Below are positions 7,799 to 34,069 of a DNA stretch of 34,069 nucleotides, piece after piece. Source of the stretch: Macrostomum lignano (lineage: Eukaryota); NCBI GenBank assembly GCA_002269645.1, contig NIVC01003161.1:81848-115916 (forward strand), in the 5' to 3' direction. Both the position numbers and the translations under genes were made by a program. The notes beneath the pieces are model-generated. The model saw nothing but the letters and a program-made list of their open reading frames with translations, was not told the origin of the DNA and did no database searches. Within the stretch, counting starts at the first letter, position 1. Each line of letters begins with the position of its first letter.

Positions 7799-7812
7799 TC
7801 TCTCCCCTAACC
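7799..7812 (-). promoter_or_regulatory. Polypurine tract
   Basis: Minus strand reads GGTTAGGGGAGAGA immediately before the 3' LTR. Confidence 0.8.
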
Positions 7813-9934: not shown

Positions 9935-11728
9935 TTATCTTAAAACTGAAACTCGTAATTCCAAAAACAATACAGCGTTTAGCGTTGTTAGCAGTTCAGT
10001 GTTATGATATTTCAGGTTTGTGATTATTTCGATTTCATGATAGGCGTTGCCAGCATTTTCGGAGCTTGATCGCTTTAAAGTTTTTGTTATGATTGGAAGT
10101 AAGAAAGTACAGTTAGATAGAAAAGCATCACGAGTCACGACAAGACCCCAACGGGGAGCATGAGAATTGCCCGCCGAGATTTGCTCGCGAGTGAATTGCA
10201 ATTCGTCAGCGGGCAATTCTCATGGACCCACCAACCCAAATGAGAACCCAAGCGAAGTGCAAGACCTAGATAGTTAATTTAGTTTTTTAAAGGAAGGGGT
10301 GGTTGATCAATACAAGGGCAATAAAATAATTAAAGTGACAAGAGGCCAACACAGAGGGAGGGGGAGGCAAGAAAAGAAAGATAAGGGGGTTGAAAACGGA
10401 TCGATAATTTCAATACCCCCTAGGCCTACAAGAACATCAGTTGTTCACTGATTATGTAGGACGAAGGGACAGAACGAGAGGGAAAGGGTGCAGGCACGAT
10501 TTTCGCGACCATATACTCATAAAAAGCGACGCGTCAATCCAAAGTCCAAACGAAAGGACGTGCAAAACTTTTTTCAGAGCGCGTAAAGCTGGCAGAAAGT
10601 AATTTGCGAGTTTTTGTGAAAGAGAGAACCCTCAAGGGAGACTTATCACAAAGACTGGGTGAATTTTTGTAAGGCCCAATCTTTGGCTTAGAAATCACTG
10701 CTATATACTGCTAGCCAAGCACCTGTTACTGCTTTCTCACTTCTCAGTACTTTTTTTGTTTTTTTATTGCCCGTACCGTAGCCCGGTAGCTAGTTGTTTT
10801 TGTTTTAATATATACCTGAATCCCTAGACCGATTCACGTGATTTTCCGCCCTTAAATTTGAACTGCTTACCTAATCAGGCAGAGTGAGAGAAGGGAGGAA
10901 AACACTCTGTGTACTTTTAGTGTTTCACTAAAACCTAGCTTTACGCATTACACATTTTGCTAAAATCCTGTGCTCAAGCTCATTGTGTGTGTGGTGTGCC
11001 CACAGTAAATCCGTGCGAGTCCAGCACACTGTTTACTCTTATTTTCTCTCTTACCCCCTTATATCTCTCCTATACTCATGTTCTGCTAGCACTGAGCTAA
11101 CATTGTCTGCCTGTTAGACTTTATTCATGCCGTTGCTAGGGCGTTGTCAGGTGGGGGGGAGAGGGCTTTTTTGATAGGCTTAGTTCCGGCTGTGGAAGCA
11201 CTGCACTAGAGCTTTTACTGCAGTCTGTATATTCCATACAATTAAATATGCAGTTTTATTTAGTTTATCTTCGATTATGCTCGCAATTTTAATTTTTCTC
11301 AAGACTTTTACCAATACTCATAAATAAGGTTGCCTTATTTATCTTTATAAGCCTGTTTTCTTGGTCTAATTATATTATATATAAAATATTATATTATACA
11401 CTCACCATACGCAATAGATAGTGACAGTCTGAGGTTACCTAATCGTTTTGCGCTTCAAAACATAATAGTTATATTTATCGCTAAAACATAAGAAAAGTAT
11501 GTGCTCTCGTATCTTGAAATATTTTGAAAACACTTCTCAGATGTATCGTAGACAGATATGATATGTACGAGTATGTAGCATGTTACTGTCATGTAAAGTT
11601 CTAAAAGGCCGATTGAAAAGCAGACAAACGGACACAAAGACAGACAGACAGAAACACCACGAAACTAAAACAGACAGACAGACCACCAGGACACTAAGAC
11701 AGACAGAAGCGCTAGACACGAATACGCA

Positions 11729-12400: not shown

Positions 12401-12581
12401 TGGACGGACAAGCAAACACTAAGACTCGAAGAGAGACAGACAAACAGATTTGTGTTCTATCTGTAGTGTTTCTGAATCTTTAATAATCATATAATAAAAG
12501 TATCTATAAAAAAACTAATTTTACTGCGCAATATTAGCAGTTGTGGCGTCCAATTCAGCATCCTTGACACCCAGCGGCAAC

Positions 12582-15349
12582 ATGCCGCCGGGTCAAAACG
12601 GCGGCCATGAGCACAGCACCGCCGCCCCTAACGGCGGCCATGAGCACAGCACCGCCGCCCCTAACGGCGGCCATGAGCACAGCACCGCCGCCCCTAACGG
12701 CGGCCATGAGCACAGCACCGCCGCCCCCAACGGTCATCGCCGACTAAAAAGCGACGCCGGGCCGCTCAATAATCGTCATCACAACCACGCATCGTCTACT
12801 GATAAGTCAGCCGCGGTGGCTCGAGCGCATTCGTTTGCGCCTGGACCTCGCGTCGTGCCTCGTCATCATCAGCACCATCAGCAGCAGAACCAACACGGAG
12901 CAGCTCTGGGCCATCGGCGAATGCACAGCTGCCCGCCGACTCCGCACCAGCTGTTTCTTCCAGGCCTGGCCATCCTGCCTGGAGGCTTCAACACCGAGTC
13001 AATCGTTGACAATCGACAGGATCAGCATCAGCATGGCAACAGTCGAGCTCGAGACTACGAGTTGGCAGTCGGCGCCACCCAGCTAGAGACGCCAACAACT
13101 TCGGCTTCGGACGGAGACGATGTCGGAATTGTCAACGATGCTTCGGAGGCTACGACAACGACGACATCGACGGAGCCAGAGCTGGACCCGAAGCTCACCC
13201 AATGCGGCCTGTTCTGCTACCACCCTGCCTGTCTGCAGCCGCTCGCCCGCCCCCTGCCATTCCTTGTGTCCGTCATTGGCTTGTACTTTGTCCAAAGCTT
13301 CATAGTCAGCGGCTATATTAATAGCATCAATACTACTATTGAGCTGAGATACGGACTAACAACTAAAGAGATTGGCTACATATACGCGTCGTATGAAGTG
13401 TTCTGCATTGTGGCTACATTCTTCATATCGTATTTTGGTCACGGCGGCAACAGATCCCGTCTATTGGGCATTGGCTGCGCAATCATTGGTATTGGATATT
13501 TTTTCTTTGCTTTTCCTCACTTCCTTGGCAGTGCCATTAGTAACACGGTGCCAGTGTCTGGTAATGCTTCCTCTTCTTCGACTGGCTCTTCTGCCTCCAC
13601 GATTAGTAGCAGTGGAGTCAAGCTGTGCAGCGGGGGAGGCGGTGGCGGCACTTCAGATATGAACTGTCAAGTGCAGGACTCAGCCTTGCTGATCCTATGC
13701 CTGAGCTTTGGTCTCATTGGCCTGGGCGCTAGCCCCGTGTACATCCTCGCCCCAACCTACCTGTGGGACAATGTACCTCAGAAGAGCTATCCTCTGTACG
13801 CGGCTTCGTTGCACATCACTAGCGCTCTTGGACCGGCTTGCGGCTTCCTAGGCGGCGCTGTGTTCCTGTCGTTGTACGTGAACTTTCCAAGCTCAGCGCC
13901 CGACGGTTTAACAACCAGCCATCCTCTATGGACGGGAGCCTGGTGGCTAGGATTCGTCATTTTCGCTGGTCTCGCTCTGCTGGTGGCTGTTCCTCTGCTG
14001 GCATTTCCAACTGTAATGCCGCACACTGCAGCGAAACGGTTGCAGAAGCAACAACAGCAGCAGCAGCAGCAGCAGCAGCAAAAAGCGCAACGTTCAACGT
14101 CCTCTCTAGACGCCGACGAGTTGACGCGAAATTCTTCAACAACAAATAGCGACGCAGCGATTGTGTCTTCAACAAATGATGACGATGAAGAGCCTAACTC
14201 GTCTCTGGATCAGTCGGCAGCTTCTTTAAGTCCGGCTGAGAAGCCGCACATTCGCGACATCCCAGCCGGTTTAAAGCGGCTGTTCAAAAACGCGTTATGG
14301 CTGTTTATCAGTCTGCTAATTGTGGCCGAGCAGTCTGTAGTACAAGCCTTCGTTGCTTACGTCAACAAGTACATGCAAAAGTCTTTTAATATCCCAGTGA
14401 CGCAATCCAGCATCATCACAGGTTTGTGTCTTGATTTTTAAAATTCAATTCAGTGACTTCGTATATTTCGTTGACTAGCAGGTCCTTAAGTGTATATTTT
14501 GACAGATCCTTCAGTGTCCATCATGACACATCCTTCAGTGTCCCATCATGACACATCCTTCAGTGTCCATCATGACACATCCTTCAGTGTCCCATCATGA
14601 CACATCCTTCAGTGTCCCATCATGACACATCCTTCAGTGTCCCATCATGACACATCCTTCAGTGTCCCATCATGACACATCCTTCAGTGTCCCATCATGA
14701 CACATCCTTCAGTGTCCCATCATGACACATCCTTCAGTGTCCCATCATGACACATCCTTCAGTGTCCATCTCAACACATCCTTCAGTGTCCATCCCGACA
14801 GATCCTCGGTTTAACTCCCATTCTGACACCACCAGCTTCGGTTTAACAAACTTGCTCCCCCAAAACTACTACCAGGCGCTCTCGTCATTCCTAGCGCCGT
14901 GATTGGCATCGGCGCCGGGGCTTTAATAATGCGCCGCTATAGGCCTAGCAACAAATCGGTGAGCCTACTCATGATGGGCCTGTGCGCCGCTACCACATTG
15001 CTCACTATTGGCCTGGCATTTTGCACCTGTCCGAATGTCAGCATGGCGGGACTGAATGCTCAGTATGGCATCCCGGCTACTAGCGGTGCGGCAGCTTCAT
15101 CATCAACAGCTGCTGCTCAGTTGCAGCTAAATGTGAGCTGCAATGCCGCCTGCCATTGCGGCAGTCTCAGCTACGATCCGGCTTGCGATGCTGTGAGTTT
15201 TTGTTCATTCTTCTGCTTTTGTGACATACAAGCTATCTTCAGTTGCTTCTGGTTTCTTGTGGATCATTTCCACTTACTTTTCACTACTAGGTTTAATTTA
15301 TGAGTGTAAGATGATCTTGAAAACTGTGATTGGTCAGTTCGTCAGTTAA

Positions 15350-15406
<57 letters not shown>

Positions 15407-15407
15407 C

Positions 15408-15458
<51 letters not shown>

Positions 15459-15459
15459 C

Positions 15460-15490
<31 letters not shown>

Positions 15491-15503
15491 CAGTTAGTTA
15501 GTC

Positions 15504-15537
<34 letters not shown>

Positions 15538-15553
15538 CTAGTTAGTTAGTCAA

Positions 15554-15585
<32 letters not shown>

Positions 15586-16573
15586 AAGTTAGTCACTTAG
15601 TTAATTAGTCAGTTAAATAGTTAGTTAATTAGTCGGTTAGTCAGTTAGTTAGTTAGTTAGTTAATTATTCGGTTTGTTAGTCAGTCAGCCAGTTCGCAAG
15701 AGGTACTTCCACACTGTCACAAATCAAGGCCACGGCCGACCCGCAACCAGGTTAATCTTATTATTTTTGTTATTATCGCTTACTGACAAGTAGTGATTGA
15801 AGAGTGTAAAGCGATTGATTGTATGCTTATAGACCACAAATTTGACACGTTTTCGCAATGTAAAGTTCAACTCGCCCCACCCTACCCAGCTCACGGGAAC
15901 AACCTACTTCACGCCGTGCCACGCCGGCTGTCAATCAAAGCAGTCCTCGACAGGGTCGAGCGATTCCTGGAATTACACCGACTGCTCATGCGTTCCCATA
16001 GCAACCAATGCCAGTCTGCCCGGTGGTTACGTCACTGGCGGTAAATGTACGGCTGCTTGCTACACGTTTGGCCCGTTCTGTGCACTGCTGTTCATCATTG
16101 TGCTGCTGACCGCCTGCGGCTACGAGCCCAGCCACATCCTCACTTTGTCCTGCGTCTCCGAGTCAGACAGCAGCTTTGCATTGGGCATTCAAAATATTCT
16201 GCAACGTTTATTAGCCTTCATACCGGCCCCGATCTACTTTGGCAGCCTGTTCGATTTCAACTGCCTGATGCGTTCGTCCGATTCGGCTTGCAGCAACGCC
16301 GACGCCTCGGCGTGCATGGAGTACGACTTGACCAGACTGCCCTACATGTGGATTGGCGTCATTCTGGGATTGAAAGTTGTCGGCTTCCTGTTTGCCAGCG
16401 CGTGCTTTCTGGTTAGTCGGGCTAGCCGAGCTGTTGATCTGCTGGACGTTGCGGCCGATGCCACAGTTGCTAAGGAGAAGGATGGTGGCGCCATGTCGGC
16501 TTCGACAAAGACTGCAGTTCAAATTGGTGCCTATAGTTCTAAGACTGATGTTGACGGAAATCACGTAGCCTGA
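12582..16573 (+). CDS. SLCO: Organic anion transporting polypeptide (OATP/SLCO), 3 coding exons 12582-14421, 14876-15192, 15890-16573; 946 aa predicted
   Basis: OATP motifs CGLFCYHPACLQ, GYINSINTTIELRYGL, FISYFGHGGNRSRLLGIG, W(T)GAWWLGF, the Kazal-like CNAACHC...YDPAC...TYFTPCHAGC, and FALGIQ...LLAFIPAPIYFG. Introns are GT-AG with matching phases (1, 0) and the exons total 2841 nt. An acceptor at 12540 precedes the ATG, so an upstream 5' exon or trans-splicing is possible. Confidence 0.93.
12597..12728 (+). repeat. 33-bp coding tandem repeat x4 (NGGHEHSTAAP)
   Basis: AACGGCGGCCATGAGCACAGCACCGCCGCCCC(T/C) occurs four times in frame. Confidence 0.95.
14501..14806. repeat. 24/25-bp intronic minisatellite, about 12 copies
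   Basis: Unit GACACATCCTTCAGTGTCC(C)ATCAT in OATP intron 1. Confidence 0.92.
15345..15685. repeat. (TTAG)n microsatellite in OATP intron 2
   Basis: Long TTAG run with TCAG variants. Confidence 0.95.
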
Positions 16574-17048: not shown

Positions 17049-19364
17049 TATTTTCATAGAGTTTTTTATGAAGCTCGACGATTTTAGCTGAAAACCTCTA
17101 TTTAACTGTATCTCTTAGAGATTGAGAAATGGTTCTGTTTTGGTTTTTTGACACTATTTTAATCCTTAGATTAAGAGAGCTATTTTTACAAGTGTGATAT
17201 GTCATCAGATGAGATTTTACCTATGCAAAATTTTATGCGTGCCTTGTTTCAGTGAATTGACTCATTGATGCCATCCATTCATCCTTGCCATGACGCCTAT
17301 CTGTCACATGTACTTTGCTAGATAGTGCAAGCTATACACATTCTTAAAAAATTTCATTTCGGATTTTTTTTAATTCCAAGACTTTTAGATACTTTTCTTA
17401 CTCTGATAACAGTCCCCCCGTTTGATATAACATGTACATTATGCCATGTAATCTGTACAGTATTTCCCTATCCAAGCACCGCTTTATCCAGGTAAAATTT
17501 TTGTGTGTTCTACTTCACTAGTTTTGAGTTGTTATTCGCTTTGTTTTTTTTAAAATGACTCTTATTGAAAACTGATGTTTTAATCCGAGCTTTATCTTAG
17601 TAAATTGCTTAGCACTAGTATGTGTTGCTGTGCGTTTCAAATGGTTAAATGGGTTATTGTATTTTTTCAGTGATACATTAACTACTTCATCAAAGATAAT
17701 GCTCATTAGTAACTTATCAACTTAGGGCATTTGTTTTTTTTGAGCAAAACTCCATGGCTATACAGACTTCAGTACTTATCAGATATTTATGAATTTCGTA
17801 GCTTAATGCGGTATTGTGAACCTTCTATCTATACGCCTGTTGTTCAGACCAAACCAACATTCCAAGATTTTACAGAATTCTTGTCTTATTTTCTTATGTC
17901 TGTCACGAACGAGTTTTTCCTTGCACAACTCTGAACTGTTTTCAGAATTTGTTTTACAATCCAAGCTGACCTTTAATGATAGATTCTGTTAATCATTCAA
18001 TATTTAAAACTCTTATTGGTTAACTTTTCTGACATATATAAGGATGTAGCAAGTACCTAAAGTTGCACGTGGTACTGCCATACTTTTTAACACAATATTA
18101 AACTATTAAATATATTATTTATGACTCAGTGGCTTTGGATTTGTTTGTTTAAAAAGTTGTTTTTTGAAAAATCAATCATATGAGGATGGAATTTACAACG
18201 AAAACTTTATTTTTTCGCATCAATATGGCACGCTTGGGTAAAATGCTACATACTACTTCTATGTATTGTACTTACACAAACAAGTTATATACACATAGCT
18301 CACTTAGCTAACTTTGTTCATCAGACTTGTCCTAAGTACTGCAAAGTAACATGATTTCAATATTAATCAATAATATTTGATAAATCGAATATTACTACTA
18401 ATAAGTAGCACGAGTTATATTTGTTATTTTATACTCTAAAACTTAAAACATTCATTCGTTTAATTGAATTAAATTTGAATTCGTGCCAACAGTTTAACAC
18501 AATCACTATTAACTAATGTAAGATGTAAGAAATGTGTTGCCATTGGACTTAACATCATTAAAAGATAAGGTAAGTTACTGGTAATATATTAGCTGGCGCT
18601 ACAGATATCATCGATTTGTTGTGAGCTGTTGGTTACGGCGGAACTCCATTTGCTACTGAAAATAGTACATGTAGTTAAGCGCATTTTTGCCAAGTGACAT
18701 CAAGTATTCTACTAGCTCTTATCTGTGGCAATGACCTTTTTAGTGCGAAATTATAGTAAATTGAAACTTTTAAACTCAATTCAAATTCAGTTCCGATCGT
18801 CACCTTTAGCCGAAAAACGAACTGCATTCTGCTTAATTAGCCGCTTCTCGTCCGCAAAATTTACGAGCGAACATGTAAAATATATCCAAGCGGAAATTAC
18901 GCTTTGACTATGCAGAATAATCTCACTCATTCTTTTTCTCAGCCATCTAGCCTAGACTACCTTTATTCTCCAGCGGCCTAGCCAGTGATTTGAGCGCCGA
19001 GACATGTGCTAAAAATAGCACAGCCTTGAGCGGTCAACCCCCCCCCTCCCATGCCAGTGTGCCCCTTGGAATTTCCAAAGAAAAGCGAAGCTGGCAATTT
19101 CTCAGTTTCAGCTCCGGTTTTTCATCCGCCAATCAGAGACCAAAAGGAAGAGAAGACGCCTGTGATGTCAGCCTATTGAATGGAAACTATTTTAAGCTAT
19201 TTTTGCAGTCTTTGCGGCAGAAACGTAAAGCGGACAGGTCTCGATTGGAATTTCCAACGCTCACGCCTGGCAGACCCCGGGAACCAACGGTTGCATAAAA
19301 ATGCGGCTCAATTCAGTGAAATGCAACCGTTCTTTAACTGAAAATCGTTATTCAAATAATTCAA

Positions 19365-21189
19365 ATGGAAACTGGAAAACTGCTTCCTGGCTGCCTGCTG
19401 CTGCTGCTGCTGCTTCTGCTGTCTTCAGCAGCTCACGGCTTGCCTGCTGCATCTTCTTCGGACAGCCAGAAGCTCCAGCAGGCACGGAGCTTCTGTGCAG
19501 CCTGGCGGCGCAGCGAGGCGCTGAATCGTCGAACTTCCATCTACCAGACCGGCCTGGTTGAGAAGTACCTGCTGGACTCGCTGACTGACCTGCAGGACTT
19601 CGAGACCGAGCTGTTGGAGAGGCGGCTGCTGGGAAAGTCGGTGCAGCACCTGCGGCAGCGACATTCATCGAGACTGACGCGGCAATTCGGCTTCAAGACG
19701 GTGCAGCCGTTGAGAAGCCTCGCCGGCCTCGGCGCTGACGTCTTCCACAACGCGGCGACTGCGGCATTCCTGATGGAGCGGCTGCTGGCTGAGGAGTTGG
19801 CGTTGGAAGTCCGCGACAGGTGAGGCATCTTTCTTTAACTGCGGTGATCTTTGCATCAGATTTTGCGTTTTCTCGGAGCCACCTACATGTAGTTGGTCAG
19901 AAGAAGTGAATGAAATTCTCCGTTAAGGTTGAATGAGCGCTTGAATCAGGCCCGCTGGGTCAGTCAGCAACTCAACAATCTGTATCAGAGTAGATCACAC
20001 AACAAACTGCAACTCAACAACAATCTGTATCAAAGTAGATCACACAACAAACTGCAACCCAACAATTTGTATCAGAGTAGATCACACAACAAACTGCAAC
20101 CCAACAATTTGTATCAGAGTAGATCACACAACAAACTGCAACTCAACAATCTGTATCAGAGTAGATCACACAACAAACTGCAACTCAACAACAATCTGTA
20201 TCAGAGTAGATCACACAACAAACTGCAACCCAACAATCTGTATCAGAGTAGATCACACAACAAACTGCAACTCAACAATCTGTATCAGAGTAGATCACAC
20301 AACAAACTGCAACTCAACAATCTGTATCAGAGTAGATCACACAACAAACTGCAACTCAACAACAATCTGTATCAGAGTAGATCACACAACAAACTGCAAC
20401 CCAACAATCTGTATCAGAGTAGATCACACAACAAACTGCAACTCAACAATCTGTATCAGAGTAGATCACACAACAAACTGCAACTCAACAACAATCTGTA
20501 TCAGAGTAGATCACACAACAAACTGCAACCCAACAATCTGTATCAGAGTAGATCACACAACAAACTGCAACTCAACAATCTGTATCAGAGTAGATCACAC
20601 AAAAAACTGCAACTCAACAATCTGTATCAGAGTAGATCACACAACAAACTGCAACTCAACAACAATCTGTATCAGAGTAGATCACACAACAAACTGCAAC
20701 TCAACAACAATCTGTATCAGAGTAGATCACACAACAAACTGCAACTCAACAACAATCTGTATCAGAGTAGATCACACAACAAACTGCAACTCAACAACAA
20801 TCTGTATCAGAGTAGATCACACAACAAACTGCAACTCAACAATCTGTATCAGATCTGCCTGGGCCTCCTAAATCCACAGAGCCATCCACAAACTCTGCTC
20901 TCGCAGACGGTCATCAGCTCGATTCGCGGACGACCTCTCCTACACCAGGGACAGCCTAGTGACCGCCATGCATCACCAGCACGAGTTCCTGTACCGGTTG
21001 GGCCACCGGTTCTCCTGGAGCGATCTGGGCCGGTACAGGGACCAGTTCAACAGGATCGAGAGGGTGCTGCACGGAGACCGCGAGGCTCGCTACCTGCGTG
21101 ACTACTTTATTGCTGGCATAGTTGCTGAGGCTGTTAATGAGACCGCGAGGGCTGTGCAGGTCCTGCGGCTGTGTCTGGGAGAGCAGTGA
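19365..21189 (+). CDS. Uncharacterised secreted protein; exons 19365-19819 and 20880-21189 (254 aa), or with an alternative donor at 21185 and a last exon at about 22264/22267-22297
   Basis: Signal peptide METGKLLPGCLLLLLLLLLSSAAHG. Phase-2 donor AG|GTGAGG at 19819 joins in frame to acceptor CCACAG|A at 20880, giving a continuous GC-rich frame to TGA 21189. No family recognised. Confidence 0.72.
19968..20852. repeat. 42/45-bp intronic minisatellite, about 20 copies
   Basis: Unit AATCTGTATCAGAGTAGATCACACAACAAACTGCAAC(T/C)CAAC(AAC). Confidence 0.95.
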
Positions 21190-21192
21190 GCT

Positions 21193-22022
21193 GGAGTGAG
21201 CAGTGTGATGGAGTGAGCAGTGTGATGGAGTGAGCAGTGTGATGGAGTGAGCAGTGTGATGGAGTGAGCAGTGTGATGGAGTGAGCAGTGTGATGGAGTG
21301 AGCAGTGTGATGGAGTGAGCAGTGTGATGGAGTGAGCAGTGTGATGGAGTGAGCAGTGTGATGGAGTGAGCAGTGTGATGGAGTGAGCAGTGTGATGGAG
21401 TGAGCAGTGTGATGGAGTGAGCAGTGTGATGGAGTGAGCAGTGTGATGGAGTGAGCAGTGTGATGGAGTGAGCAGTGTGATGGAGTGAGCAGTGTGATGG
21501 AGTGAGCAGTGTGATGGAGTGAGCAGTGTGATGGAGTGAGCAGTGTGATGGAGTGAGCAGTGTGATGGAGTGAGCAGTGTGATGGAGTGAGCAGTGTGAT
21601 GGAGTGAGCAGTGTGATGGAGTGAGCAGTGTGATGGAGTGAGCAGTGTGATGGAGTGAGCAGTGTGATGGAGTGAGCAGTGTGATGGAGTGAGCAGTGTG
21701 ATGGAGTGAGCAGTGTGATGGAGTGAGCAGTGTGATGGAGTGAGCAGTGTGATGGAGTGAGCAGTGTGATGGAGTGAGCAGTGTGATGGAGTGAGCAGTG
21801 TGATGGAGTGAGCAGTGTGATGGAGTGAGCAGTGTGATGGAGTGAGCAGTGTGATGGAGTGAGCAGTGTGATGGAGTGAGCAGTGTGATGGAGTGAGCAG
21901 TGTGATGGAGTGAGCAGTGTGATGGAGTGAGCAGTGTGATGGAGTGAGCAGTGTGATGGAGTGAGCAGTGTGATGGAGTGAGCAGTGTGATGGAGTGAGC
22001 AGTGTGATGGAGTGAGCAGTGA
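21193..22022. repeat. 17-bp minisatellite, about 49 near-perfect copies
   Basis: Unit GGAGTGAGCAGTGTGAT. Confidence 0.97.
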
Positions 22023-22813
22023 CCTGGAGGCAGCGGTGTAATGAAGTCAGCTAACTTATTAAAACTTACCCAAAAAGTAAATCCAGCTAAACCGATTGTT
22101 GGATTGTTAATTAATGCACTTCTTTCAAGGTATTTACAAAATTCTGTCATAATTTATTGATCACATCAAAAACGCACCTGCAATTCGTATAATTTATTGT
22201 TTTAACTACGAACTCATTCGGCTCAACCAGTTAATATATTTATTATTCGTGTACTTACTGCAGCAGGCCTGACAATATCAGCCAAATTTTGCAATAAGCT
22301 TTCTTCCTTTTTTCACCTTGTTTAGCAGTTTAACAAAGTTTTTTAACTCTCGTTTTGCTACACATTAGATTTTTAAATGCTAAATAGTTTGCATATTTGC
22401 ATACAGATTTTATCTTCATGCTATTTCACCTATATGCTGATCCCATGTTCTCAAAGCTAGCTACTACTGATAGCGGTATATGTAACAAAATTGCAAAATT
22501 TGATTCGATATTTTCAATAAACCTTCTGAGCAGTTTTTTTGTCTATTAAAATCGCATGCAGTTCTGTGGTTGCTATGCAGCCCAGGTTTTAACGTTATAA
22601 GTTCGTTAAATTTTATCGAGCTTTACTCTCTGAAATTCACCTAACCCTACTAATGAGTAAATCGAAAGGCAAAAAAGAAGACATTTAATAACATAACGGT
22701 AGCTGATTTTTCTAGCGCGATCTTTTTCATCCAAATTTGTCTATGGTGAAACCTCATTCAGTGCTGTGCGTTCTCAAGAGATTTTTTAAGAAAATTGAGT
22801 GCAGCGTCCTTCA

Positions 22814-23236
22814 TTATAATTCATTAGTTGTCCACGGGTGCACTAGGCTTCCAGATAAGTTTGCGCAGTCCAGAAACAGCGGCTGCACCTGCGGCTGCCG
22901 CTTCATCCTGAGCAGCACCGTGACGCCTGTGCCGAACCCGATGTCGCTCTTGTTCATGGCCAGAAACGAGCTGCTCCCATCGAACGCGGCGCCCTCCTCT
23001 GTCCACTGGACTCCGATCGGATAAATTCGGTTGGTCTCTTCGTCAGCCTGGCACACGACATTCTCAAATGCAGACATGTCGTCTCCGAGCCACACGTTTG
23101 TGAGCTTCGGGTTGAGCTGAGCCGGATATTTGATCGGAAATCGGATGAGCACTCGGCAGTCGCTGCTCGCACCGCCAGAGACAAGGTCGCGACACACGGA
23201 CTGGTAGCGGAAGAGACTGCACTACGTATCGCGCCA
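22814..23236 (-). CDS. Putative coding fragment with a LamG/concanavalin-A-like beta-rich segment; start uncertain (splice acceptor, or ATG 23236 plus a frameshift)
   Basis: GC-rich island with a protein-like frame SLFRYQSVCRDLV...EGAAFDGSSSFLAM...GVTVLLRMK. GAAFDGSSSFL resembles the start of LamG-type domains (pattern recognition only). An in-frame TAG lies just upstream. Confidence 0.45.
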
Positions 23237-23374
23237 TTAGAGCTGGGTTTTCAGAATTCTGACGCAAAAAACGCAAATTATACTACTATCTGAAAATGAA
23301 GTAAGTAGTATTCGAAAACGCTATCCTAAGCGTGATATATGGCAATATGTAGTCGTAATAATCCATGTGCTCAT

Positions 23375-24015
23375 ATATGTACATTAATCCCATGTACATT
23401 AATCCCTATCTATCTCAAATTGGATATGTACATTAATCCTATGTACATTAATCCCTATCTATCTCAAATGTCCATGTCTATACCCAATTCTATATGTACG
23501 CAGTATGTGCATTAATCCACATGTATAGTGTCATCCCCAGACGGCCCGCGCACACCAAAATTACAACTCGAAACCCTACTACATGTACAATCTCATCCAA
23601 ATGAGTCAACTAATTGTACAGCTCACATCGTATATAAACTATTTACAAAGAAGATATATTTACATTAAATCAGTAGCATATTACAGTAAATAATTTATGT
23701 ACAACATTACCAGCGAATAGAATATACAGAAAATTTTACATTGTTTTTCAATATTTTTCTCTTCATAAATGATTTTAAACAGGTCTGACACGCAAAATAT
23801 GTACAATAGATTTTTACATTGGCAATTTCGCCGCATACAATACAAAAATGCTTTATGTACATTGAATTATGTACAACAAATAGATTTACTCTAATAAATT
23901 TGGCAATACTACAATGCAAAAATGCTTTATATACGGCTCGTACATTGACATGCAAATTATGTACAACAAATAGATTTTTTCTGATAAATTTAACAATACA
24001 ACAATGTACATTGAA
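23375..24015. repeat. AT-rich, TGTACA-rich local tandem duplications
   Basis: Repeated ATGTACATTAATCC(C) at 23375-23520, and 2-3 diverged units of about 90-100 bp (AATTATGTACAACAAATAGATTT) at 23790-24015. Confidence 0.6.
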
Positions 24016-24038: not shown

Positions 24039-27000
24039 TTATTTATAGCCATAAGGCCTGCTGCCGGCCCCGTACACACGTTTTGTCAGGACGCGCTGAA
24101 ACGTCTTGTCCATACTAACAGTGTGAATGGTACAAGACGCCTTGTCGCGCCTGAACTGAAACTGCGGCAGCTGCAGAGAGCCACCGTGTAGCAGTGTGTT
24201 GCGCAGGTCGTCGCTACGCTCCCGTATCTCCGGAGTCAGGCGAATGCCCTTGCATTTCAAGACCTGGCTCCGGACACCGGCCGCATCCTCGACAATGTAA
24301 GTGTAGAGCTTGGGCCCTCCACTTACAAAGTCGGTCATCCGGCTGCCTGTGGGCACTTCGTCGGTCCACATTCCGAGGCTCGTGCCATGGGGCGGCTCCC
24401 ATTGGCCCTCGGAATGCCGGTAAACGACCCTGTGTGGGGGGAGAGAGAAAAACGAGATAATTAGTTCCACATGCTAACTATTTACATGTAATCAATTCTA
24501 AAAGAGCAATACTTACGAGTCAGTGTCGCAGTAAATGGCCCGTTCGCCGAGCCCCTCCAATGCCTCGTACAGGCGCAGCCGGGCCTGCGTGGTTGTAAAA
24601 ACACCGATTGGCACGTTGGAGTAGCGGAACGGCCGCTGATTAAAGTAGCGGTGCCGGTACTCCAGCAGCATAAACTCGCTGCCAATCGGTTCGCAGGCCT
24701 TGACTTTGAGGTTGGGGTCGGTCAGCCGGGCGAGCCAGTCCTCGTAGCTGGATACAATTTCTGTCGATGTCAGGTCGTCACGCTGACAAAATTTACCCCA
24801 GAGCCTGCGTGTAAAGAAAAGCTACTGTTAGTAGAAGAAGAAATCGTTTAAAAATCAATTTATGAATACTTACGAATTCAAAAAGATTTTCGCTACAAAG
24901 CGAAGTCCTGGGTTGGGCTCGACCTTGTCCAGCGTGACGCCCTCCTTTGCGTAGAAATCGGCAATATAGGCGGCCTTGTCTTCATCTGACATGCCGGGGG
25001 AGCCGCTCGACTCAGCCTTCAATTTGAGGAAGGTGCTGACATAGTCACATAGTCCAGTAGGCCAGCGCGTGCACCACCTGCAGCCGGTAGCCCAACTGGA
25101 AGGCCTTTCGCAGCTCCGGCGTGGCCCAGGTGCCAGTCAGCGCTCGCTCCTCGTCTGAGTGGTCGCAGCAGCCGCTGCACTGCTGCTCCATACAGGTGCG
25201 GCAAAGCCCAAAAAGAGATTCTTTTGCACCCTGTAGGGCAGCAGCGGAATATGCAAATCTGACGGCGGCAGCACTGTCACTTTGGCAATGCCAAAGTAGC
25301 TGGCCAGCGCGTCAGAATCGAGCACTTGCGGCGTCGGGTGGTTCACCGGGTGGCCAATCGGGTACGGGTCTTTCGACTGCACCGTCGGGTACAGAGAGAC
25401 CTGCCAGTTGAAATAAAACATTATTTTTCATAAACTGTATTTTTGCAAAATATTCTACTACATTAGTAGTATCACTACTCACCACATCCCGATATTTGAG
25501 AGTCTCAGTCTCGCTGGCCACAGCATGCGGGATAAAACACTCTACGCGGCCGCCGTAGAGCGCATCTTCCATCTTGAGCGGAGCGCGCAGATGTGCAGTT
25601 GCGGCAATGAAATCGGCCTGCGATGCCAATACAGTGTCGTATTCGTGCTCCCAAATGACTCGAACACTGTAATTGTGCCGCTCCAACTCGCGAGTGAACC
25701 ACTCAGTCTCGTGGCGGATATGGCTCAGAGGCTGCCGTTTGAGCGGGTGGACAACATCCTGATCGGGCATGCACTGCTCGCAGCCATGGTAGAAACAGCC
25801 ATGAAACTGCAAGACAGTGTTGGTGGCCTCATCAAAGCCGTCCACCTTGCGGCCGAGAATGACCGCCTCACCGCCAGTCGAGTCGCAGGTTCGCAGCCGC
25901 CCACCAAATTCGGTGGCATTCAAATAGGCCAGCCACTTGCGCGCCTTGAATGACTGCTGGTCGGCCTGCCGGGCAATCACGCCGACCGAGTTGGGCTCCA
26001 TAAACCGGGTGGTGAAAACGGCCATTGCTAAACTGGCAATCGTATTGGCCTGTACAAATGGTTCCAGGCCGTCGCAAATGTCACCAATTATTGCCCTGTA
26101 CTTGATGCAGCCCTCGCGAAGCAGGACTGTGTCGCTCAAACAATAATCGAGATACTCCCGATTAAAGTTGAACAACTCGCCCTGTCGCGAGGCTAGCCAA
26201 GCACAGATGGAGCCGTAATCCTTGTTTGTCTTGCCGCCATAATAATCAATAGTCGGGTAGGGGCCCACGTAGTTCCAATTAGCCGGCTTGTTGAACTCGT
26301 GGGGAAAGGTCCCCTTGGCCAGCTTTGTGTCCTCGAGCCCCAGAGCTTTGGGGAATTGCGCAAGCGGGATTGGTATAAAATTAAACGAATCTTTAAATAC
26401 CAATTTATCAACCGTCATGCTCATTAGCCGGCTGCCCTGGAACAGTACTTGGGGCCGCTTCTTGGCCAGGCCGTTGAGTAGAGCGCCAAGCAGTAAAAAC
26501 GAATCGTAGCCTGATGCATTATGCGCGACAACAATGGCGCCGCCTCGGAATGTGGTGCTTAGCCAGGCGAAAAAAGCATTCAGCGAGGCCGGGCCCACAG
26601 CCACAAAATCGGCCATTTGGCAGGCGCAGTCTGAAGGGCTGACGCAATTGGAGAATTCCTTCCCCAGATCGCGGCCAGTCAGACAATTGGCAGTGCTATG
26701 CAGGCCATTGCAGAGGCGGCAAGTCTCGCGCGGAAATGCCCGGCCGGAACAGGTCTCGCAACACGTGACGGCAGTCACCAGATGCACGTGATGCTGCTTC
26801 TCCTCATCCGTGTATGTTTCCGTATCGTAGAACACGTACGGCATAGTTGAAGCTTTCACTTTGGAAGCCTTGACGAAGCACAAATGCGAGCCGGCCTCGT
26901 CATACTGTTTACACAGTGGGCACTTGACATGGCCGCACTTGTGTTCCGGCTCCTTTTGCCCGACTTTCATCTCCTCCAAATATCCGCATTTGGGGCAGAC

Positions 27001-28061
27001 TCGGACAGAGTCGCAGCGCGACCGCCCAGCCCGGTTTTTCCGGCGGTGGTTGTCAAAACACTGCTGATTGTAACAATTCAATCCGCAGTCTGGGCAGCGC
27101 TTGTAGTCACGCTGCAGGCTCTTGCAATTGGAGCCGGGCACTTTACACTGAGGGCAGGTGTTGGAGCACTTGTGTTCTCCAGACACGCAGTCGTACGGCT
27201 GCTGGCAGCGGTCACAATAGCGACGGGCACCGAAAAATGGCGGCACCTTGCACACCGCGTTAGTGCTCGCCAATTAGGTGCAAATTCAGCACTGTGCTGC
27301 CTGGTAGGGCGTACACACATGTATTGCCCTCCTCGGCACTGTACACACGAACGCCGAAATCCCGGCCTGGTGACTGGGCGTTCAGGACAGCCAACAGTTG
27401 GGGGAGCATGTCAACCCCGAAAGGCCCGTCCTGTGCAATGGTTGATAAAGACTAAAACATTTGTATATTAATAAAAATGCAAATTAAAATGTGCAAGATT
27501 ATTTTTTACTCACCGAATACAATTTAGCAGCAATCTGAAGCTCCCCAGTCAGCTTCTTCTGCATTGTGGAGTCGGCCTTGACGGTTTGCCATGTAGTCCT
27601 AGTAATGGCCTTGGCCTGCAGATCGGCGAAAGCCTTGGCCACCACCAGCGCCCTGATGAGGCAACGCTTGTCGCTGTTGGCGATGACGACATAGCTGTTG
27701 CCCATAGCATGCCTGGCCTGAATATGCTTTTCCGCCGCATCTAGGCTGCCGCAGCCGCCCCGCGGAACCCAGGCCTTGAGCAAAAACAATTTAAAGTTGT
27801 TACCCAAGACGCTGGAGTCCGACTGCAGAACCTTGTTGATATGTTTAAATATCAGCTCTGCAGTGAAGCGGCTGCGGCGGACGGGCGGGACATTGATGGC
27901 GAGCATCATATTGTCCGCCGTCAGCTTAGATGCGACGAAATCATCTGCCCGCAGGTCCTCACAAAGTGTAGAAATTACTTCTGTGAATGTGGCGCGAATA
28001 TCAGTGGTATCGGTGAATGATACCACATACTCATACCCTGCGGCTCTAAATTTAGGCAGGG
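24039..28061 (-). pseudogene. polB: Polinton/Maverick/adintovirus-type protein-primed family B DNA polymerase, spliced and frame-disrupted. Exons 28061(or 28037)-27514, 27430-25483, 25400-24874, 24804-24517, 24429-24039
   Basis: ExoI FYDTET, ExoII AHNASGYD, ExoIII YCLSDT. Pol motif A YRDV|VSLYP, motif B KIFLNS|LWGKF, motif C YCDTDS|VV, and C-terminal FVSGGPKLY...KCKG. Joining four GT-AG introns (83, 82, 69, 87 bp) restores these motifs. Lesions lie near 27262, 25212 and 25050. Confidence 0.9.
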
Positions 28062-28171
28062 CTTTCGCCCCGCCAAGATGCGCAATGAAGCCCGAAAAAA
28101 TGAAGGGTTTTGAAATTAGAATTGCGAGAGGCGGCGGGTGTATGACTCATGAAATAAAATCAACTCTTTAC

Positions 28172-28222
28172 CATCGCCTTCGACAGTGTCGGGCTGGGGC
28201 GGGGGTTGAAATTGAGCCAAAT
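28172..28222 (-). CDS. Putative 51-nt symmetric (phase 1-1) exon 2 of the polB gene
   Basis: Acceptor TTTTATTGCAG|, then (D)LAQFQPPPQPDTVEGD, then donor G|GTAAAG. Phases match both neighbouring exons. Confidence 0.45.
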
Positions 28223-28261
28223 CTGCAATAAAATGCGCATGGTGACTAAAATTCTGACCGC

Positions 28262-28670
28262 TTGGAATTTTACAACTGTCAAAAATTTTTTGATTGATTG
28301 CCTGCAGCAGCAGCAATTTTATCGCCCCACCCCAAGCAACAAAAATCGGCGAGTTGTAAAAACCCCAACTCGGCACGTTCCGACACGTAGCAACAAAAGA
28401 AATGTGGGGTTGATTGAACCCCGCTTCGAATTTTAGGCTGTCAAAAATGTTTGATTGATGACCCTGATAACACTGATCCTGCCGCAGCAGACATTGTAAA
28501 ATTTAAGAAAACCCCCTATCAGCACGTGCCTCCATTGTGCCCCCTTGACACCTAGCAACAATACCGCGCGGTCGCTTTTGGATTTTTAAAGCTGTCATAA
28601 ATGTCTGATTAATAACCCTCACTGTAGCAGCCAAGTTTTATTGCTGCCAAAACCCCTACAATTACCGGTA
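28262..28670. repeat. Three diverged tandem units of about 160 bp
   Basis: Anchor GA(A)TTTT...CTGTCA.AAAT.T.TGATT at about 28265, 28428 and 28580, each followed by GCAGCAG-like and AAAACCCC blocks. Confidence 0.6.
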
Positions 28671-29223
28671 CAGCGGTGATTACATCATCATGCCCAAAAT
28701 CGGGGGTTGATTTTATCACTGCCGCCAGAATACCGGCCTGCCCACCCCGCTGAGTCACGTTCGCGCTGCAGGATTGCTGTTTTTGCTTCTCTCTAGTTCA
28801 AGGATTAGTCACATAACCCCTGAAATTTTATGACTATCCTCTACAGGCATTATCCGGCTATACTGCTGCTGCTGCGGATATTCTCTAAAACTCTGTTATT
28901 TCAACAGGCCTGAATTTGAGAAATCCAGTTCCTCCCTTTACTTCAACATCTATGTCAAGAGGAAATTCAGAAATTTTAAGTCAAAATGAATGTTAAAGAT
29001 GAAAAGCAGCTGTGGTTTCAAAGAAAGCCCATATTTCAACTAGCGAAAAAATTTGCAAATCACACAAATGCTAAAGCAATTATACAGCCCTATTTTTCTG
29101 AATTCAGATTTTGCAAATGCTAAAAGCATAGTTTTACACACGCAGAGACTCACCTAGCGGGCGTCCCCTCTTTGCGGCCGGAGGCTGATGCTGTTGTTGC
29201 TGTTGCTGCTGCTGCTGCTGTTG

Positions 29224-32200
29224 TTGTTGTTGTTGTTTTGGTGGTACGCGCCCAGGCAGAGCTAAGGGCAGTGTCTGGCCAGCGCTATCAACCCGAGGGG
29301 GTCGGCGGAAATGCTGCTGATGTCTGTCGTGGGTCCTCCAAGAAGGCGGAGCCTGGTGCCAGCGAGAGCTGGGCAGTCAAGCCAGTGTTTCAGGTCATCG
29401 CAGGGATGGCCGCAGCGGTGACATGCCGGGTCGACGGCCGGGTCGACAATGCTGCGATACGCGTTGAAAAGAGTGCAGTGACCTGAGCGTAAGCGCGCAA
29501 GAAGCACCGCATCGGCACGGTTGGTGATGGAGTCCTCTTCCAATTGACGGTTGAGAAGCCGGTACGCGTGCCGGGTGCGCTCGTGGCGTATCGGGGGATC
29601 GAGGACGGATCTTCTGATGACGTTTTTGGCGCTGTGGATGCTGATCTGACTAGCGGGAGACACGAGCGTGGTGGCCTCTTTGGCTGCTTGGTCGGCCAGC
29701 TCGTTGCCAGGAATATTCTGGTGGCCCGGAACCCACTGCCAGGTGATTTCGGCAGATGCAGTAGGTAGTGCAGATCTGATTCTGGGGTTGCCGCTGGCCA
29801 GAGCGCGGAGCATAGATTGGCTGTCGGAGCAGATGTTGGTAGCCGCGGTGAGAGCAGCTTGGTTGATCCAGCCGATGGCGAGAGAGGCGACGCGAAGCTC
29901 CTCTTCGAACGAGGATGTGGAGGGCGCGCCGCGCTGTTGAAGAGTCGCCAGGATGATAGGGTGGGCTGGGTCACCGGTCGTGACGATGGCTGAGGCGCCG
30001 CCATTGGTCGTGCCGCCTGATGCCGAGCCGTCGCAGTAGATGGTGATCAGGCCTGGGAGGTGGCGGATAGTGTCGATGGCCGTGGCTGTGCGCGCGGGAC
30101 CGGGTTCCGGCAACGCCATGTCGACACGCACGTCGGTAGAGAAAGGGTCCCAAGGCGGCGGACGAGCAGTGCAGATCATGGCGCGCGGCGTGACCGAGCT
30201 AGCTATGAGTGGCAGCAGGTCGGTGACGTGGTTCCGCCAACTGTTCCTGCGTAGCCTGTGCGCTGTGTTACCAGTGGCGGCAATGCGGCACGGGTGAGAA
30301 TCCGGGAGGCGCTGAGCTCTTTCGAAGGCCGTCAGGCATATAACATTGCTACCAGTGCGGACGGAGCAGATGCCAGCTTCCAGCCTAAGGGCCTCAACCG
30401 GTGTCGTGCGGTGTTGTCCTGTGACAATACGAAGAGCTGCGTTCTGCGCTCTCTCCAGCTGTTGAAACGCGGATTCAGAGAGCCAAGGGTGCCAGGCCGG
30501 CGCTGCTAAGTTAATGATGCTAAGTTGCATGGCACGGTAAATGCGGATCAGGAGTTTTTTGGACCAACCCCATTCCTTGGAGGCCAGGCAGGCGAGGAGA
30601 CGGCAACGGGAAGTGGTCCGATTGCACACGTGCTCCAGATGGCTGCGGAAACTCAGAGTGCGGTCCAGTGTGAGGCCCAGCAGCCGAGGCGTTGGATTGT
30701 GCCGCAGGTTCCGGCCTTCGATAGAGATAGCCGGGGACCAGGCGGCTTCGCTGGTGTCCGTGGAGAAAAAGGCGGCCTCGCTTTTGTCTGGGTTTAGGAC
30801 CATTTTGTGCTCATTGCTCCAGCGGGCCACGTTGTCGAGTGCTCTTTGCACAGCGCGTTGAGCCTCTAGCTTGTTGCGGTGGCGGGCGCGGAGGGCGATG
30901 TCGTCGGCATACATGGAGATCTCTGCCGGCGGGTTGACCACGTCATTGACCGTGTCAATGAAAATAAGGAAGAGAAACGGAGCGATGACCGATCCTTGCG
31001 GGAGGCCCTGGCGCATGATAACCGGTGAGCTGCGAGGACCGTGGAGTTGCACGCGGGCAATGCGATGGTGCAGAAAGGCCGCAGTCCATTTTATAAAGAC
31101 AAGAGGGACGCGTTTGCGTGCCATAACGGTGATGAGGCGCTCACGCCATACCTTGTCAAGGCTTTACAGAAATCAAGCAGAGCAATGATCGTGCGTTCAG
31201 ATGGTTTGAGGTTCATCCCGTCGCTGATGTCTTGGGTGACTCTCAGGAGCTGATCCTCGCAGGAGTAGTTGGCCCGAAACCCCGCCTGGTTCGGGGAGAT
31301 CCAGCCGTGGCGCTCAGCCAGGTGGTGCAATCTAGTGACCAGGATGCGCTCGAGCAGCTTGACAATACAGGATGTGAGGCTGATGGGGCGAAAGGCCGCG
31401 ATGTCCCGAGCTGACTTTCCAGCCTTGAGCAGGGGAATAATAATCGCGGTGCGCCAGGATTGAGCGACGGCCGCGTGCTGGAAGGACCAGTTGAAGAGAC
31501 TAAGCAGCTCTGCGCGGGCGAGCGGGCCAAGGGCCTTAATGAACCGAGGCGTGACCTCGTCGGCGCCAGCAGCGCCGTTAGCACGCTGGTGTTGTATGGC
31601 GGAGTCCAGTTCCTGCTCGGTGATGGCGGCGTATCCGTCGTGGGTCGAACCTGGGAGCGGAAGGGGAAGCCGAAGGATGGCTTTGGCTTCTCGGATAGTA
31701 GCGCGATCCGAATGGGAAATGTGGTACCTGCTGACAGAGGCGTACTGCTTGGCAAAGGCGTTGGCTTTGTCTCTAGGGTCTGTTAACACTTTGTTGCCGA
31801 CCTGGAGGGCCTCATTAGGGCAGTTGGAGTCCGGAGTGCCGTTAAGGCTGCGGATGAACTTCCACGCCTTGTTCGAGTTGGGCTCTTTCTCAAGATCGGT
31901 TATCGTGTCACGCCAAGCAGCCTCTTTCGTTGCCCTGGCAATTTTGTGAACGTTGGCGCAGGCGCTGAGCCAATCTTCTCTATTCTCGCCAACGGAGCGC
32001 CTGAGGCGGTTACGGAGCTTAATCGCCGCTTTGAGTTCAGGGGTGAGCCAGGGACGCGGTCTGTGCGAGGTACGGACTTTGCCGATGCAAAGGTTTGCCG
32101 CTTGCATGACTATATCATTAAAACGTTTGGCTCTGGCGTCAAAGGTAAGATGCTCTTTGTGAAGGGCTTTAAATTTGTCCTCGACGACCGTTTGGAAAGC

Positions 32201-32520
32201 ATTCCAGTCGACCCCTTGTTTGCGCCATATGAGACGGCTTTGGGCCTTAGGCAAGGTCCTAACCTTGAGGTCAAGGCGGATCACAATCGGCGTGTGATCA
32301 CTGCCGAGGTCATCGGAGACTTGCCAGGTGCATTTGCTAGCCAGCTTTGAGGAGGCGAAGGACACATCCGGTGAGCTTTCGCCACCTGTGGCTTTATTGA
32401 CTCTGGTGGGCGAGCCGTCGTTAAGGATTTCCAGTTGCGAGTCGATGGACCAGTCCAGGAGCGTGGAGCCTCGTTCGTCCTGGGGCTGTATAGGGTCCCA
32501 GGCCGGAGAGTGCTCTGTGC
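29224..32520 (-). mobile_element. 5'-truncated non-LTR retrotransposon (I-group-like: APE remnant, RT, RNase H, C-terminal zinc knuckle) with (CAA)n tail
   Basis: APE C-terminal half HSPAW...RG...LNDGSPT...PDVS...DLGSDH. RT motifs FRPISLTS, QAGFR, GLPQGSVIAP, YADD. RNase H IYCDGS...SDSQS...WVPGH..IPGNELAD. Zinc knuckle CHRC...HWLDC. 20-bp TSD at 29204-29223 and 32521-32540. Confidence 0.93.
29262..32512 (-). pseudogene. LINE ORF2 (endonuclease remnant-RT-RNase H) with a single -1 frameshift near 31158
   Basis: ORFs 31091-32365 and 29262-31124 join as LDFCKA(F)DKVWRE if one T is restored in GCC-TT-GAC. Confidence 0.88.
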
Positions 32521-32870
32521 TGCTGCTGCTGCTGCTGTTGTGAGGGGCCTGCTCGCCCCCACAAGGCTGAAATTGCTGCTTCAGCGGCCGAACGTTTTGA
32601 TGCCATGCTTCTGCTGCTGCTGCTGTGCTACTGCGATTGCGGCTGATGCTGCTGTGATTGCGACTGTGACTGCTGATGCTTGCGGTTTCTGATGCTGCTG
32701 CCGTTTGCTGATGTTGTGACTTCTGCTGTTGTTGCTTCTTCTGCTGCTAGCTGTGCTGATGCTGCTGCTGTGTTGCCGCTGTTGCAGGCTGATGCTGTTG
32801 AAGCAGTTGATGCTGCTGTTGTGGCTTCTGCTGCTGCTGGCTGCTTTTGCTGATGCTGCAGCAGCAGCTC
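32521..32870. repeat. CAG/CAA-rich low-complexity tract
   Basis: Cryptic (CAG/CAA/CAT)n on the minus strand. No long consistent frame upstream of ATG 32606. Confidence 0.8.
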
Positions 32871-32961
32871 TCACCCGCTTTATATACCCTGCGAGAGGGA
32901 GGATGGGGTAGGGGCACGAGAGGTGTGCGTGATTTTCTTTCCCGGGTCTATATTTTCTAGA

Positions 32962-33770
32962 TTAGTGTACGATTGTACACTCGGTTCCGCATTTGGTATA
33001 GAAAAGTTGGGGGTCGAAAATACCCACCAATTCTTTTCTCATGCGGTATTTTATTGGATCTGAGCGGAGCCACCCAACCAGCATTCTCGCAGGAGTGAAA
33101 ACTGCTGCTCCGCCAGAGTACAGTCTCTTAATTAGGAAGACCGCTTCCTCTTGCAGCATGTCTTTTCGACTTGAATTGGATAGAAAACGGTGTTTATTCA
33201 AAAGACAATACCTTGGCGGACCAATAATAGCTAAATACAGATGAAAAATATGAAAGATGACTTCTGTGGTTTTTAAGGCCCGCCGGTCTCTGCGAGAAAA
33301 TGGTTGTTAAAAATCGCTGTATCAATTTAAGAACCTGGGAGAAATGGGGCTTGTGTGCAAAGCATCTGATTGACAGAGGCTCGGGGAAGAGAAATAGTCG
33401 ATGAAAAGCTCTTGCCATCATCCAAAATATCCATCAAAGAGTAATAAAGGTGACAGCCCCTGTCGCAAGCCAAATCAGAGACAGAGTTTTCTACTTCTGT
33501 TTACGTAATGTTTAGGGATGGACCTGGGGTTATAGGGACAGAGAGTCAGTTATGGCATTTACGCGGTAGTAAAGAATTGCCTTGGTGAGGCTTGGGTAGG
33601 TGTTGTTCTCTCCATATTGGCGAACATTAATAGTCCTGGGTTGAATTTTGAATATGGCTAGAATGTATAGCGGCCGGAGAATCGTTGAATTGAAGGGTGA
33701 ATCAACATGCAAAGTATGCAACAAAACCGATTCAGTGCATCTAAAAGAGGCTGTTGTGAGCTTCAGAACT
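32962..33770 (-). other. Possible degenerate spliced coding region of unknown identity
   Basis: Protein-like segments LHVDSPFNST...YYRVNAITD, DLACDRGCHLYYSLMDILDDG...QAPFLP and (A)IIGPPRYCLLNKHRF...CGTECTIVH. A phase-compatible CCAG|GT...TTTAG| intron lies near 33336-33232. One stop and one frameshift are needed upstream. Confidence 0.3.
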
Positions 33771-34069
33771 GAGAATAACGTTTAAAATAGCATCAATGGC
33801 ATGATGTAGTAATCGAAATCAATTGAATGCTGAAAACTTTAGGTTTAATAGGGTAATTGCAGACTGTGTTTTTAGCCCCAATTTTTACAGTGTCTATAGA
33901 ATATTTCCCCAGCTTCTTGGACAATGTACATGCCTATTTGAATGACAAAACAACATTTTTTGATGGTATATTAGCTAAAATTATGATTTCTATTGATAAA
34001 ATGGCAGATTTTGATCCATAAAGTAAGCATTTTAACGTTAAAAATCGAAAAATGAGGAAAACTCGTGTT

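Follow-up and report, generated by a model that had tools for sequence, protein, structure and literature searches.

An intron-split, protein-primed DNA polymerase in a mobile inverted-repeat element of Macrostomum lignano without a detectable integrase

In this study, we describe a gene for a Polinton-type, protein-primed DNA polymerase of family B (pPolB) that is split by six spliceosomal introns in the flatworm Macrostomum lignano, in a window of 34,069 nt (assembly GCA_002269645.1, contig NIVC01003161.1, positions 81,848-115,916 of the forward strand; all coordinates below are positions in this window). The gene belongs to a mobile, transcribed, spliced and selected family, carried in an element with terminal inverted repeats (TIRs) and without a detectable integrase. 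The feature is real and behaves as a Polinton replicon would, but it falls outside the Polintons for want of detectable integrase and virion genes. We think it probable that the element is an integrase-less, Polinton-derived replicon, inserted in trans by a borrowed Polinton integrase.

Results

The gene lies on the minus strand, and a sequence-only reading of this DNA had placed in it four introns with canonical ends, at 27431-27513, 25401-25482, 24805-24873 and 24430-24516. All four were confirmed as introns 3-6 of the gene, with lengths of 83, 82, 69 and 87 nt, and a GC content of 0.24-0.36 against 0.53-0.58 in the exons. Their donors read GTRAGT and their acceptors CAG, and they lie in phases 0, 0, 2 and 2. 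Three of them interrupt the motifs DV/VSLYP, NS/LWGKF and DTDS/V (the slash marks the intron), and splicing restores each motif in frame, as had been read. The word GTRAGT occurs five times on the gene strand of 24039-28146, four times as an intron donor at the start of an AT-rich stretch, and the count by itself is weak (5 against 1.9 expected in shuffles). The total of four introns did not stand, since the gene extends beyond the region first noted, with a 51-nt mini-exon, two additional introns and a first exon starting at 32606, which brings the introns to six.

Genome-wide, all 112 candidates for the last internal exon were scored and 101 places among them match it, a figure which is not a copy number as the assembly contains duplicates. 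Subfamily A accounts for 44 of these rows, at 88-100% identity, and subfamily B for the 57 at 66-76%; the two are 66% identical in protein and share the same six intron sites. Eighteen A copies were aligned, and ten B elements were fetched, seven of which were excised and aligned. GT..AG ends are found at introns 3-6 in 17, 16, 16 and 17 of the 18 A copies, and at all six introns in all seven B copies, with which an eighth concurs. The A introns vary in length free of any multiple-of-three rule, and none of the 18 copies has lost an intron precisely. Of the positions compared, 0 of 630 at the intron ends and 257 of 5130 in the interiors differ. When ten introns taken from a single copy of each subfamily were compared by blastn, they showed none of the mutual similarity typical of introner-type introns. 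Intact copies, the existence of which had been raised along with shared intron positions, exist in part: 5 of 7 B copies have an open frame in all seven exons, and 4 of 18 A copies have one throughout exons 2-7. As a separate observation, the interiors of A-family introns 2-6 differ by just 5% among copies with about 20% silent coding-site difference.

The siblings allow the gene to be laid out from its 5' end. A probable exon 1 (29154-32606; M..KR...KRGR.L, 42-53 codons in siblings, with a similar first exon in B) is interrupted here by a long interspersed nuclear element (LINE) retrotransposon with endonuclease, reverse transcriptase and RNase H, also on the minus strand, with approximate limits of 29246-32517. 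It is followed by a long intron 1 (28223-29153; 657-762 nt in B), placed by its conserved donor and acceptor, the mini-exon 2 (28172-28222; 45 nt in B), aligned in both subfamilies, and intron 2 (28092-28171), which has GT..AG ends in 14 of 18 A copies and is joined in the public gene models P0001-P0003 and P0005. Exon 3 (27514-28091) holds a putative terminal-protein region, PRGG and the Cys of a putative vOTU domain; intron 3 is supported by the A and B alignments and joined in P0002. Exon 4 (25483-27430) carries the putative vOTU His, the Cys-rich region and the exonuclease. After intron 4 (phase 0, DV/VSLYP), which is a multiple of three and stop-free in several siblings, comes exon 5 (24874-25400), where PF03175, the protein-primed family B polymerase profile, matches in the region of the large exon and exon 5 (E 4e-14). 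Intron 5 (phase 2) splits NS/LWGKF, exon 6 (24517-24804) runs from LWGKF to DTD and is backed by the genome-wide exon matches, intron 6 (phase 2) splits DTDS/V, and the last exon, exon 7 (24039-24429), lies downstream of that motif in alignment with the siblings. The Cys and His columns of the putative terminal protein-vOTU N-terminus (domain names borrowed from PMC11161782) are conserved, and the fold of P0001 matches phi29 polymerase and adintovirus PolB. The window copy is not intact even when spliced, with frame changes near 27260 in exon 4 and near 25212 and 25050 in exon 5, a non-canonical intron 2 acceptor at 28092 and the LINE within exon 1; it is dead.

Splicing was followed in four sequencing runs mapped onto a sibling copy, L051; the runs are presumed to be RNA, which is a guess as none is recorded as such, X1, X5 and X6 coming from three studies and X11 being of unknown kind. 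X1, X5 and X6 each gave one contig that exactly skips intron 4 and one that skips intron 6, the nine letters in between reflecting a one-base difference in L051; in X11 neither intron is skipped. Removal of intron 5 is seen in one X5 contig that runs from exon 6 directly into a subfamily-B exon 5, with no A joint among those listed. Removal was thus observed for no more than three introns, 4 and 6 in A and 5 in B. No joint for introns 1-3 is among those listed on L051, which is uninformative given low cover and 17 joints outside that list. The spliced contigs may derive from any sibling rather than the window copy. Public gene models labelled Macrostomum lignano partly join the same junctions, thus the introns have also been seen by automatic annotation. 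We conclude that they are confirmed as real spliceosomal (U2) introns, and the assignment to a Polinton/adintovirus-type pPolB held on the PF03175 match and the fold matches. The ratio of nonsynonymous (dN) to synonymous (dS) divergence, dN/dS, is 0.10-0.15 (mean 0.13) in 15 pairs from six A copies picked for mostly open frames and 0.09 in one B pair, which shows purifying selection; between A and B, silent sites are saturated and dN is 0.30.

Sibling matches stop at 23220/23221, and the left end of the element (23221-23480) is a TIR starting ACTACGTA, 240-930 bp long in siblings, as placed by sibling TIR pairs and target site duplications (TSDs). The right arm (32700-34069) has a TATA-like word near 32880, and the element continues beyond the window end; this arm is non-coding in most A copies and carries PC4-like and dUTPase genes in one variant. 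Elements measure 9.5-10.4 kb in A (more with LINE inserts) and 8.7-9.8 kb in B, with TIRs of 240-930 bp and about 0.7-1.4 kb, respectively, within the Polinton range of 100-1500 bp. Their ends read ACTACGTA and ACTACTA, and the (AG)n / (AGT)n end motif of vertebrate Mavericks (PMC8097293) was not found. Nine A elements could be judged at both ends: seven of them are flanked by a 6-bp TSD and two lie in low-complexity flanks. In B, 10 of 10 elements have such a TSD, and this length is the usual one within the Polinton range of 5-8 bp. The right flank of the element on C3173/C4472 (L027; C3173:79104) and the left flank in the window (23215-23220) share the same 6-bp duplication and seem to continue one host reading frame; the arms of two copies were swapped, by recombination or by assembly. 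A/B copies also cluster and nest (C157, C471, C513, C1485, C1157), with a B-type end adjoining Polinton genes at C1157, which may reflect target preference.

The sequence-only reading had left two alternatives, an intron-rich lineage of self-synthesising elements or a host-domesticated polymerase. Introns, transcripts and purifying selection could each be expected of a domesticated gene. Domestication was nevertheless rejected because the copies are dispersed over about 100 places, bounded by TIRs and 6-bp TSDs with differing flanks, and many are broken, that of the window included; we give it a negligible chance. The dispersed copies, TIRs, TSDs and shared intron sites instead bear out the former alternative, a mobile family.

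Gene content was searched in 38 stretches (8 A, 10 B and 20 others), using tblastn with 814 open reading frames (ORFs) from Polinton-bearing stretches and an integrase hidden Markov model (HMM). The HMM gave no match at E<=10, its control returning seven strong matches, and tblastn gave no integrase, ATPase, capsid or protease match; the short B layout leaves no space for an integrase gene. Hidden coding was not indicated in the right arm of five plain A copies, where 56 of 368 indels are multiples of three and codon periodicity is absent. A Pox_A32 search gave 0 matches, yet Polinton ATPase-like ORFs exist in the genome, so this search was too weak for use. Rfam gave no match in three loci, and the PDB none by sequence. 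A PC4-like ORF on the opposite strand is listed in 9 of 10 B elements and an additional ORF in four; the B protein matches Pfam PC4 weakly (E 0.19), and its atlas score of 0.87 is a lead only. One A variant encodes a PC4 protein above the Pfam cut-off together with a dUTPase. A B-subtype ORF of 336 aa at L104:8561-9637 (+) has no Pfam match and a probable intron near its end.

Such a layout might be left by deletion from a lost or unassembled complete intron-bearing Polinton, the polymerase being a passenger with inherited conservation. Remnants of pPolB and TIRs without integrase are indeed described for C. elegans in the accessible part of 10.1101/2024.01.15.575659, many M. lignano copies are broken, and one variant retains PC4-like and dUTPase genes. 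On the other hand, the same short layout stands between matching TSDs at many loci, thus it moved in this form, and both subfamilies, saturated in divergence, lack an integrase while keeping a low dN/dS and all splice sites, so that we regard this explanation as quite improbable.

The TIR searches, in which 40 of 226 and 40 of 296 candidates were scored, also found 17 elements of 4.1-9.4 kb in which both ends are present and neither a polymerase nor any other gene was matched. A 6-bp TSD flanks 16 of the 17, recognised by script in 14 cases and by eye in 2. In three pairs the two members have a flank in common, and these may be duplicates in the assembly. Six of them (L182, L188-L190, L193 and L194, on C657, C1575, C3499, C2944, C2288 and C436), with A- or B-type ends, are about 99% self-complementary over their entire 9.1-9.4 kb around a short, imperfect, hairpin-folding centre that recurs at different loci. 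The direct 6-bp flank repeats and the shared centre rule out a sequencing artefact. For any genome, stable palindromes of this giant size are uncommon in their own right.

Complete Polintons of several families are present in M. lignano, with unbroken PolB ORFs of 1125-1478 aa, an integrase with chromodomain, and protease-like and capsid-like genes, and Polinton-type integrase ORFs are plentiful (146 matches, with 144 of 2313 candidates scored). Their ends begin AGTAGT wherever seen (C114, C759, C754, C506, C393, C67, C1101, C592), with 6-bp TSDs at C114 and C592. By tblastn their polymerases do not match P0002, save one degraded copy at 33%. In a FastTree tree of 70 rows and 1138 columns (four A/B models, five from the M. 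lignano genome, L197 and, out of 92 database proteins that qualified, the first 60, without named pPolB1/pPolB2 references), A and B form one clade (support 1.0), far from four complete Polintons of the genome and among Nematostella-, fish- and metagenome-type proteins; four ENA/Logan proteins stand as their sister group (support 0.955). Beyond the family, identity to the nearest proteins is 30-40%, and scans of metagenome and viral contigs gave no close relative. On the tblastn result and the tree placement, the A/B polymerase therefore appears not to come from the sampled resident Polintons. As relatives have an uninterrupted PolB, intron gain within the A/B lineage is suggested.

Another explanation is a segmented system, in which a partner segment with ACTAC ends carries the integrase, perhaps with virion genes, and is possibly intron-split. 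The A/B ends differ from those of all complete Polintons seen, most TIR and integrase candidates are unscored, and intron-split genes evade ORF searches. Against this, 20 further TIR-bearing stretches are without integrase by tblastn or HMM, 12 PC4-bearing stretches proved to be A/B variants or fragments, and the one divergent integrase class that was followed, in six stretches, is part of Polinton-like elements that have no relationship to A/B and whose ends, where seen, are AGTAGT; a partner segment seems unlikely. Two specific candidates were rejected. The degraded, uninterrupted PolB at C234 (33% identical) is no ACTAC-ended helper, the ACTAC motif lying in a separate 719-bp inverted repeat, and the divergent integrase class, of about 61% identity, shares no DNA similarity with A/B and has AGTAGT ends at C592. 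In a Polinton family on C494, C738, C1277 and C592 (L219-L230), which is largely palindromic at C592, several copies retain integrase and virion-type genes while their PolB is reduced to a short piece, the reverse of the A/B condition. L197:1-10224 has an unbroken PolB ORF (28% to the query, group-1-like) followed by large ORFs of unidentified type, and no integrase was recognised by eye in its ORF list.

Elsewhere in the window lie a host OATP transporter gene (12519-16573, +) with tandem repeats in its introns, an internally deleted long terminal repeat (LTR) retrotransposon (7607-9935) with 193-bp LTRs 98% identical and gag-like and zinc-knuckle pieces, and, at 19338-22050, a probable host gene whose hydrophobic leader occupies 19338-19823 (+), beside tandem arrays with units of 42/45 bp and 17 bp.

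Discussion

The reading that we favour, a replicon inserted in trans, would work as follows. Host Pol II and the spliceosome would make the mRNA, and the terminal protein-vOTU-exonuclease-palm protein would prime at its own ends, as the conserved Cys/His pair and the accessible text of PMC11161782 suggest. The vOTU-like domain would free the terminal protein, the polymerase would copy from the ACTAC ends, aided by the PC4-like protein, and a Polinton integrase would accept these ends although its own are AGTAGT. We propose insertion in trans by that enzyme on two grounds, the shared TSD and the fact that ACTACT departs from AGTAGT at no more than every third base. Since the introns interrupt catalytic motifs, there would be no enzyme unless the transcript were spliced in the nucleus, a condition in keeping with a nucleus-bound, non-viral life. 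The gene-less palindromes may be fold-back satellites that rely on this polymerase and integrase for their copying and insertion, perhaps as dimers of hairpin molecules of about 4.6 kb.

A non-Polinton DDE enzyme, such as an LTR-retrotransposon or Ginger-type integrase, or another transposase that duplicates 6 bp, might insert the element instead; the ends are unlike the Polinton ends seen, and the window does contain LTR elements. The requirement of LTR integrases for TG..CA ends counts against it. Long TIRs together with a 6-bp TSD are moreover Polinton hallmarks (PMC8097293), and we consider such an enzyme very improbable.

Several points weigh against a Polinton integrase acting in trans. 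The main weakness is the AGTAGT/ACTAC mismatch: every complete Polinton with seen ends starts AGTAGT, which makes the helper link a proposal and leaves room for a partner segment. With the TIR and integrase candidates partly scored, an ACTAC-ended, integrase-bearing partner may be unseen. Free linear DNA of the element was not observed, most A copies are without a PC4-like gene, introns 1-3 have no listed joint, the RNA nature of the runs is a guess, and the copies compared for dN/dS were selected.

More tentatively, a three-tier nuclear system is conceivable, in which complete polintoviruses supply the integrase, the spliced replicon, without capsid or integrase, lives off them, and gene-less hairpin satellites, integrated as palindromic dimers of 9 kb, live off both. 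The replicon might then amount to an integrating linear plasmid of the nucleus, old enough for deep subfamilies with their own end code, a suggestion that we hold with the same reserve.

The A/B family indicates that replication and integration can be uncoupled in animals, and that a Polinton replicase can depend fully on the host spliceosome, even inside its catalytic motifs; its polymerase would be a virus-derived gene that has gained introns and kept them. The evidence that Polintons replicate by protein priming comes mainly from sequence. With this family, which is transcribed, has moved recently and is accompanied by satellites, a laboratory flatworm makes the matter testable. Since Polinton surveys, as far as the accessible text of Jeong 2023 and Barreat 2021 goes, look for unbroken ORFs and pPolB beside integrase, they would miss the A/B class or call it a fossil. 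The accessible part of 10.64898/2026.10.13.758929 consistently pairs pPolB with a DDE integrase in its nested-element examples.

Among published forms, our literature search found neither an intron-split polymerase nor an integrase-less layout described for animal Polintons; the founding papers and Repbase were outside its reach and may describe such forms. The accessible portions of 10.1101/2023.08.22.554363, PMC8502044, PMC11296320, PMC12220804 and PMC6431247 make no mention of pPolB with spliceosomal introns. The available text of PMC8097293 describes intact vertebrate Mavericks as free of introns, and nematode Mavericks, in that of 10.1101/2022.07.12.499685, have intronless core genes and cargo with introns.

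With Polintons/Mavericks the A/B family shares PolB (PF03175) with a putative terminal protein/vOTU-like N-terminus, long TIRs, a 6-bp TSD, and PC4-like and dUTPase accessory genes, which complete Polintons of the M. lignano genome also carry; it differs in its size (about 9 kb against 13-25 kb), its six spliceosomal introns, its ACTAC rather than AGTAGT ends, and the lack of a detected integrase, ATPase, protease or capsid gene. Non-autonomous TIR elements and snap-back defective viral genomes resemble the gene-less elements in having a coding partner's ends and in folding back, whereas here whole-length palindromes reach 9.4 kb with a structured centre, and the partner itself depends on others for insertion. 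Capsid-less Polintons, for example in Trichomonas vaginalis, share the loss of virion genes and a pure transposon life, as far as PMC4405056 is accessible, but have an integrase by definition in the available text of PMC5499653, while none is detectable in A/B. Dinoflagellate Polinton-like elements that bear introners likewise contain spliceosomal introns, which in the accessible text of 10.1101/2025.03.18.643946 are mostly recent and transposon-derived, whereas the A/B introns are mutually dissimilar and keep six positions across a deep split. Eukaryotic linear plasmids with pPolB, fungal cytoplasmic and mitochondrial, share a minimal terminal protein-pPolB replicon between TIRs and, on the accessible part of PMC11161782, derive from polintons through loss of the virion module; these plasmids are extrachromosomal and extranuclear, whereas the A/B family is nuclear, spliced and inserted with TSDs.

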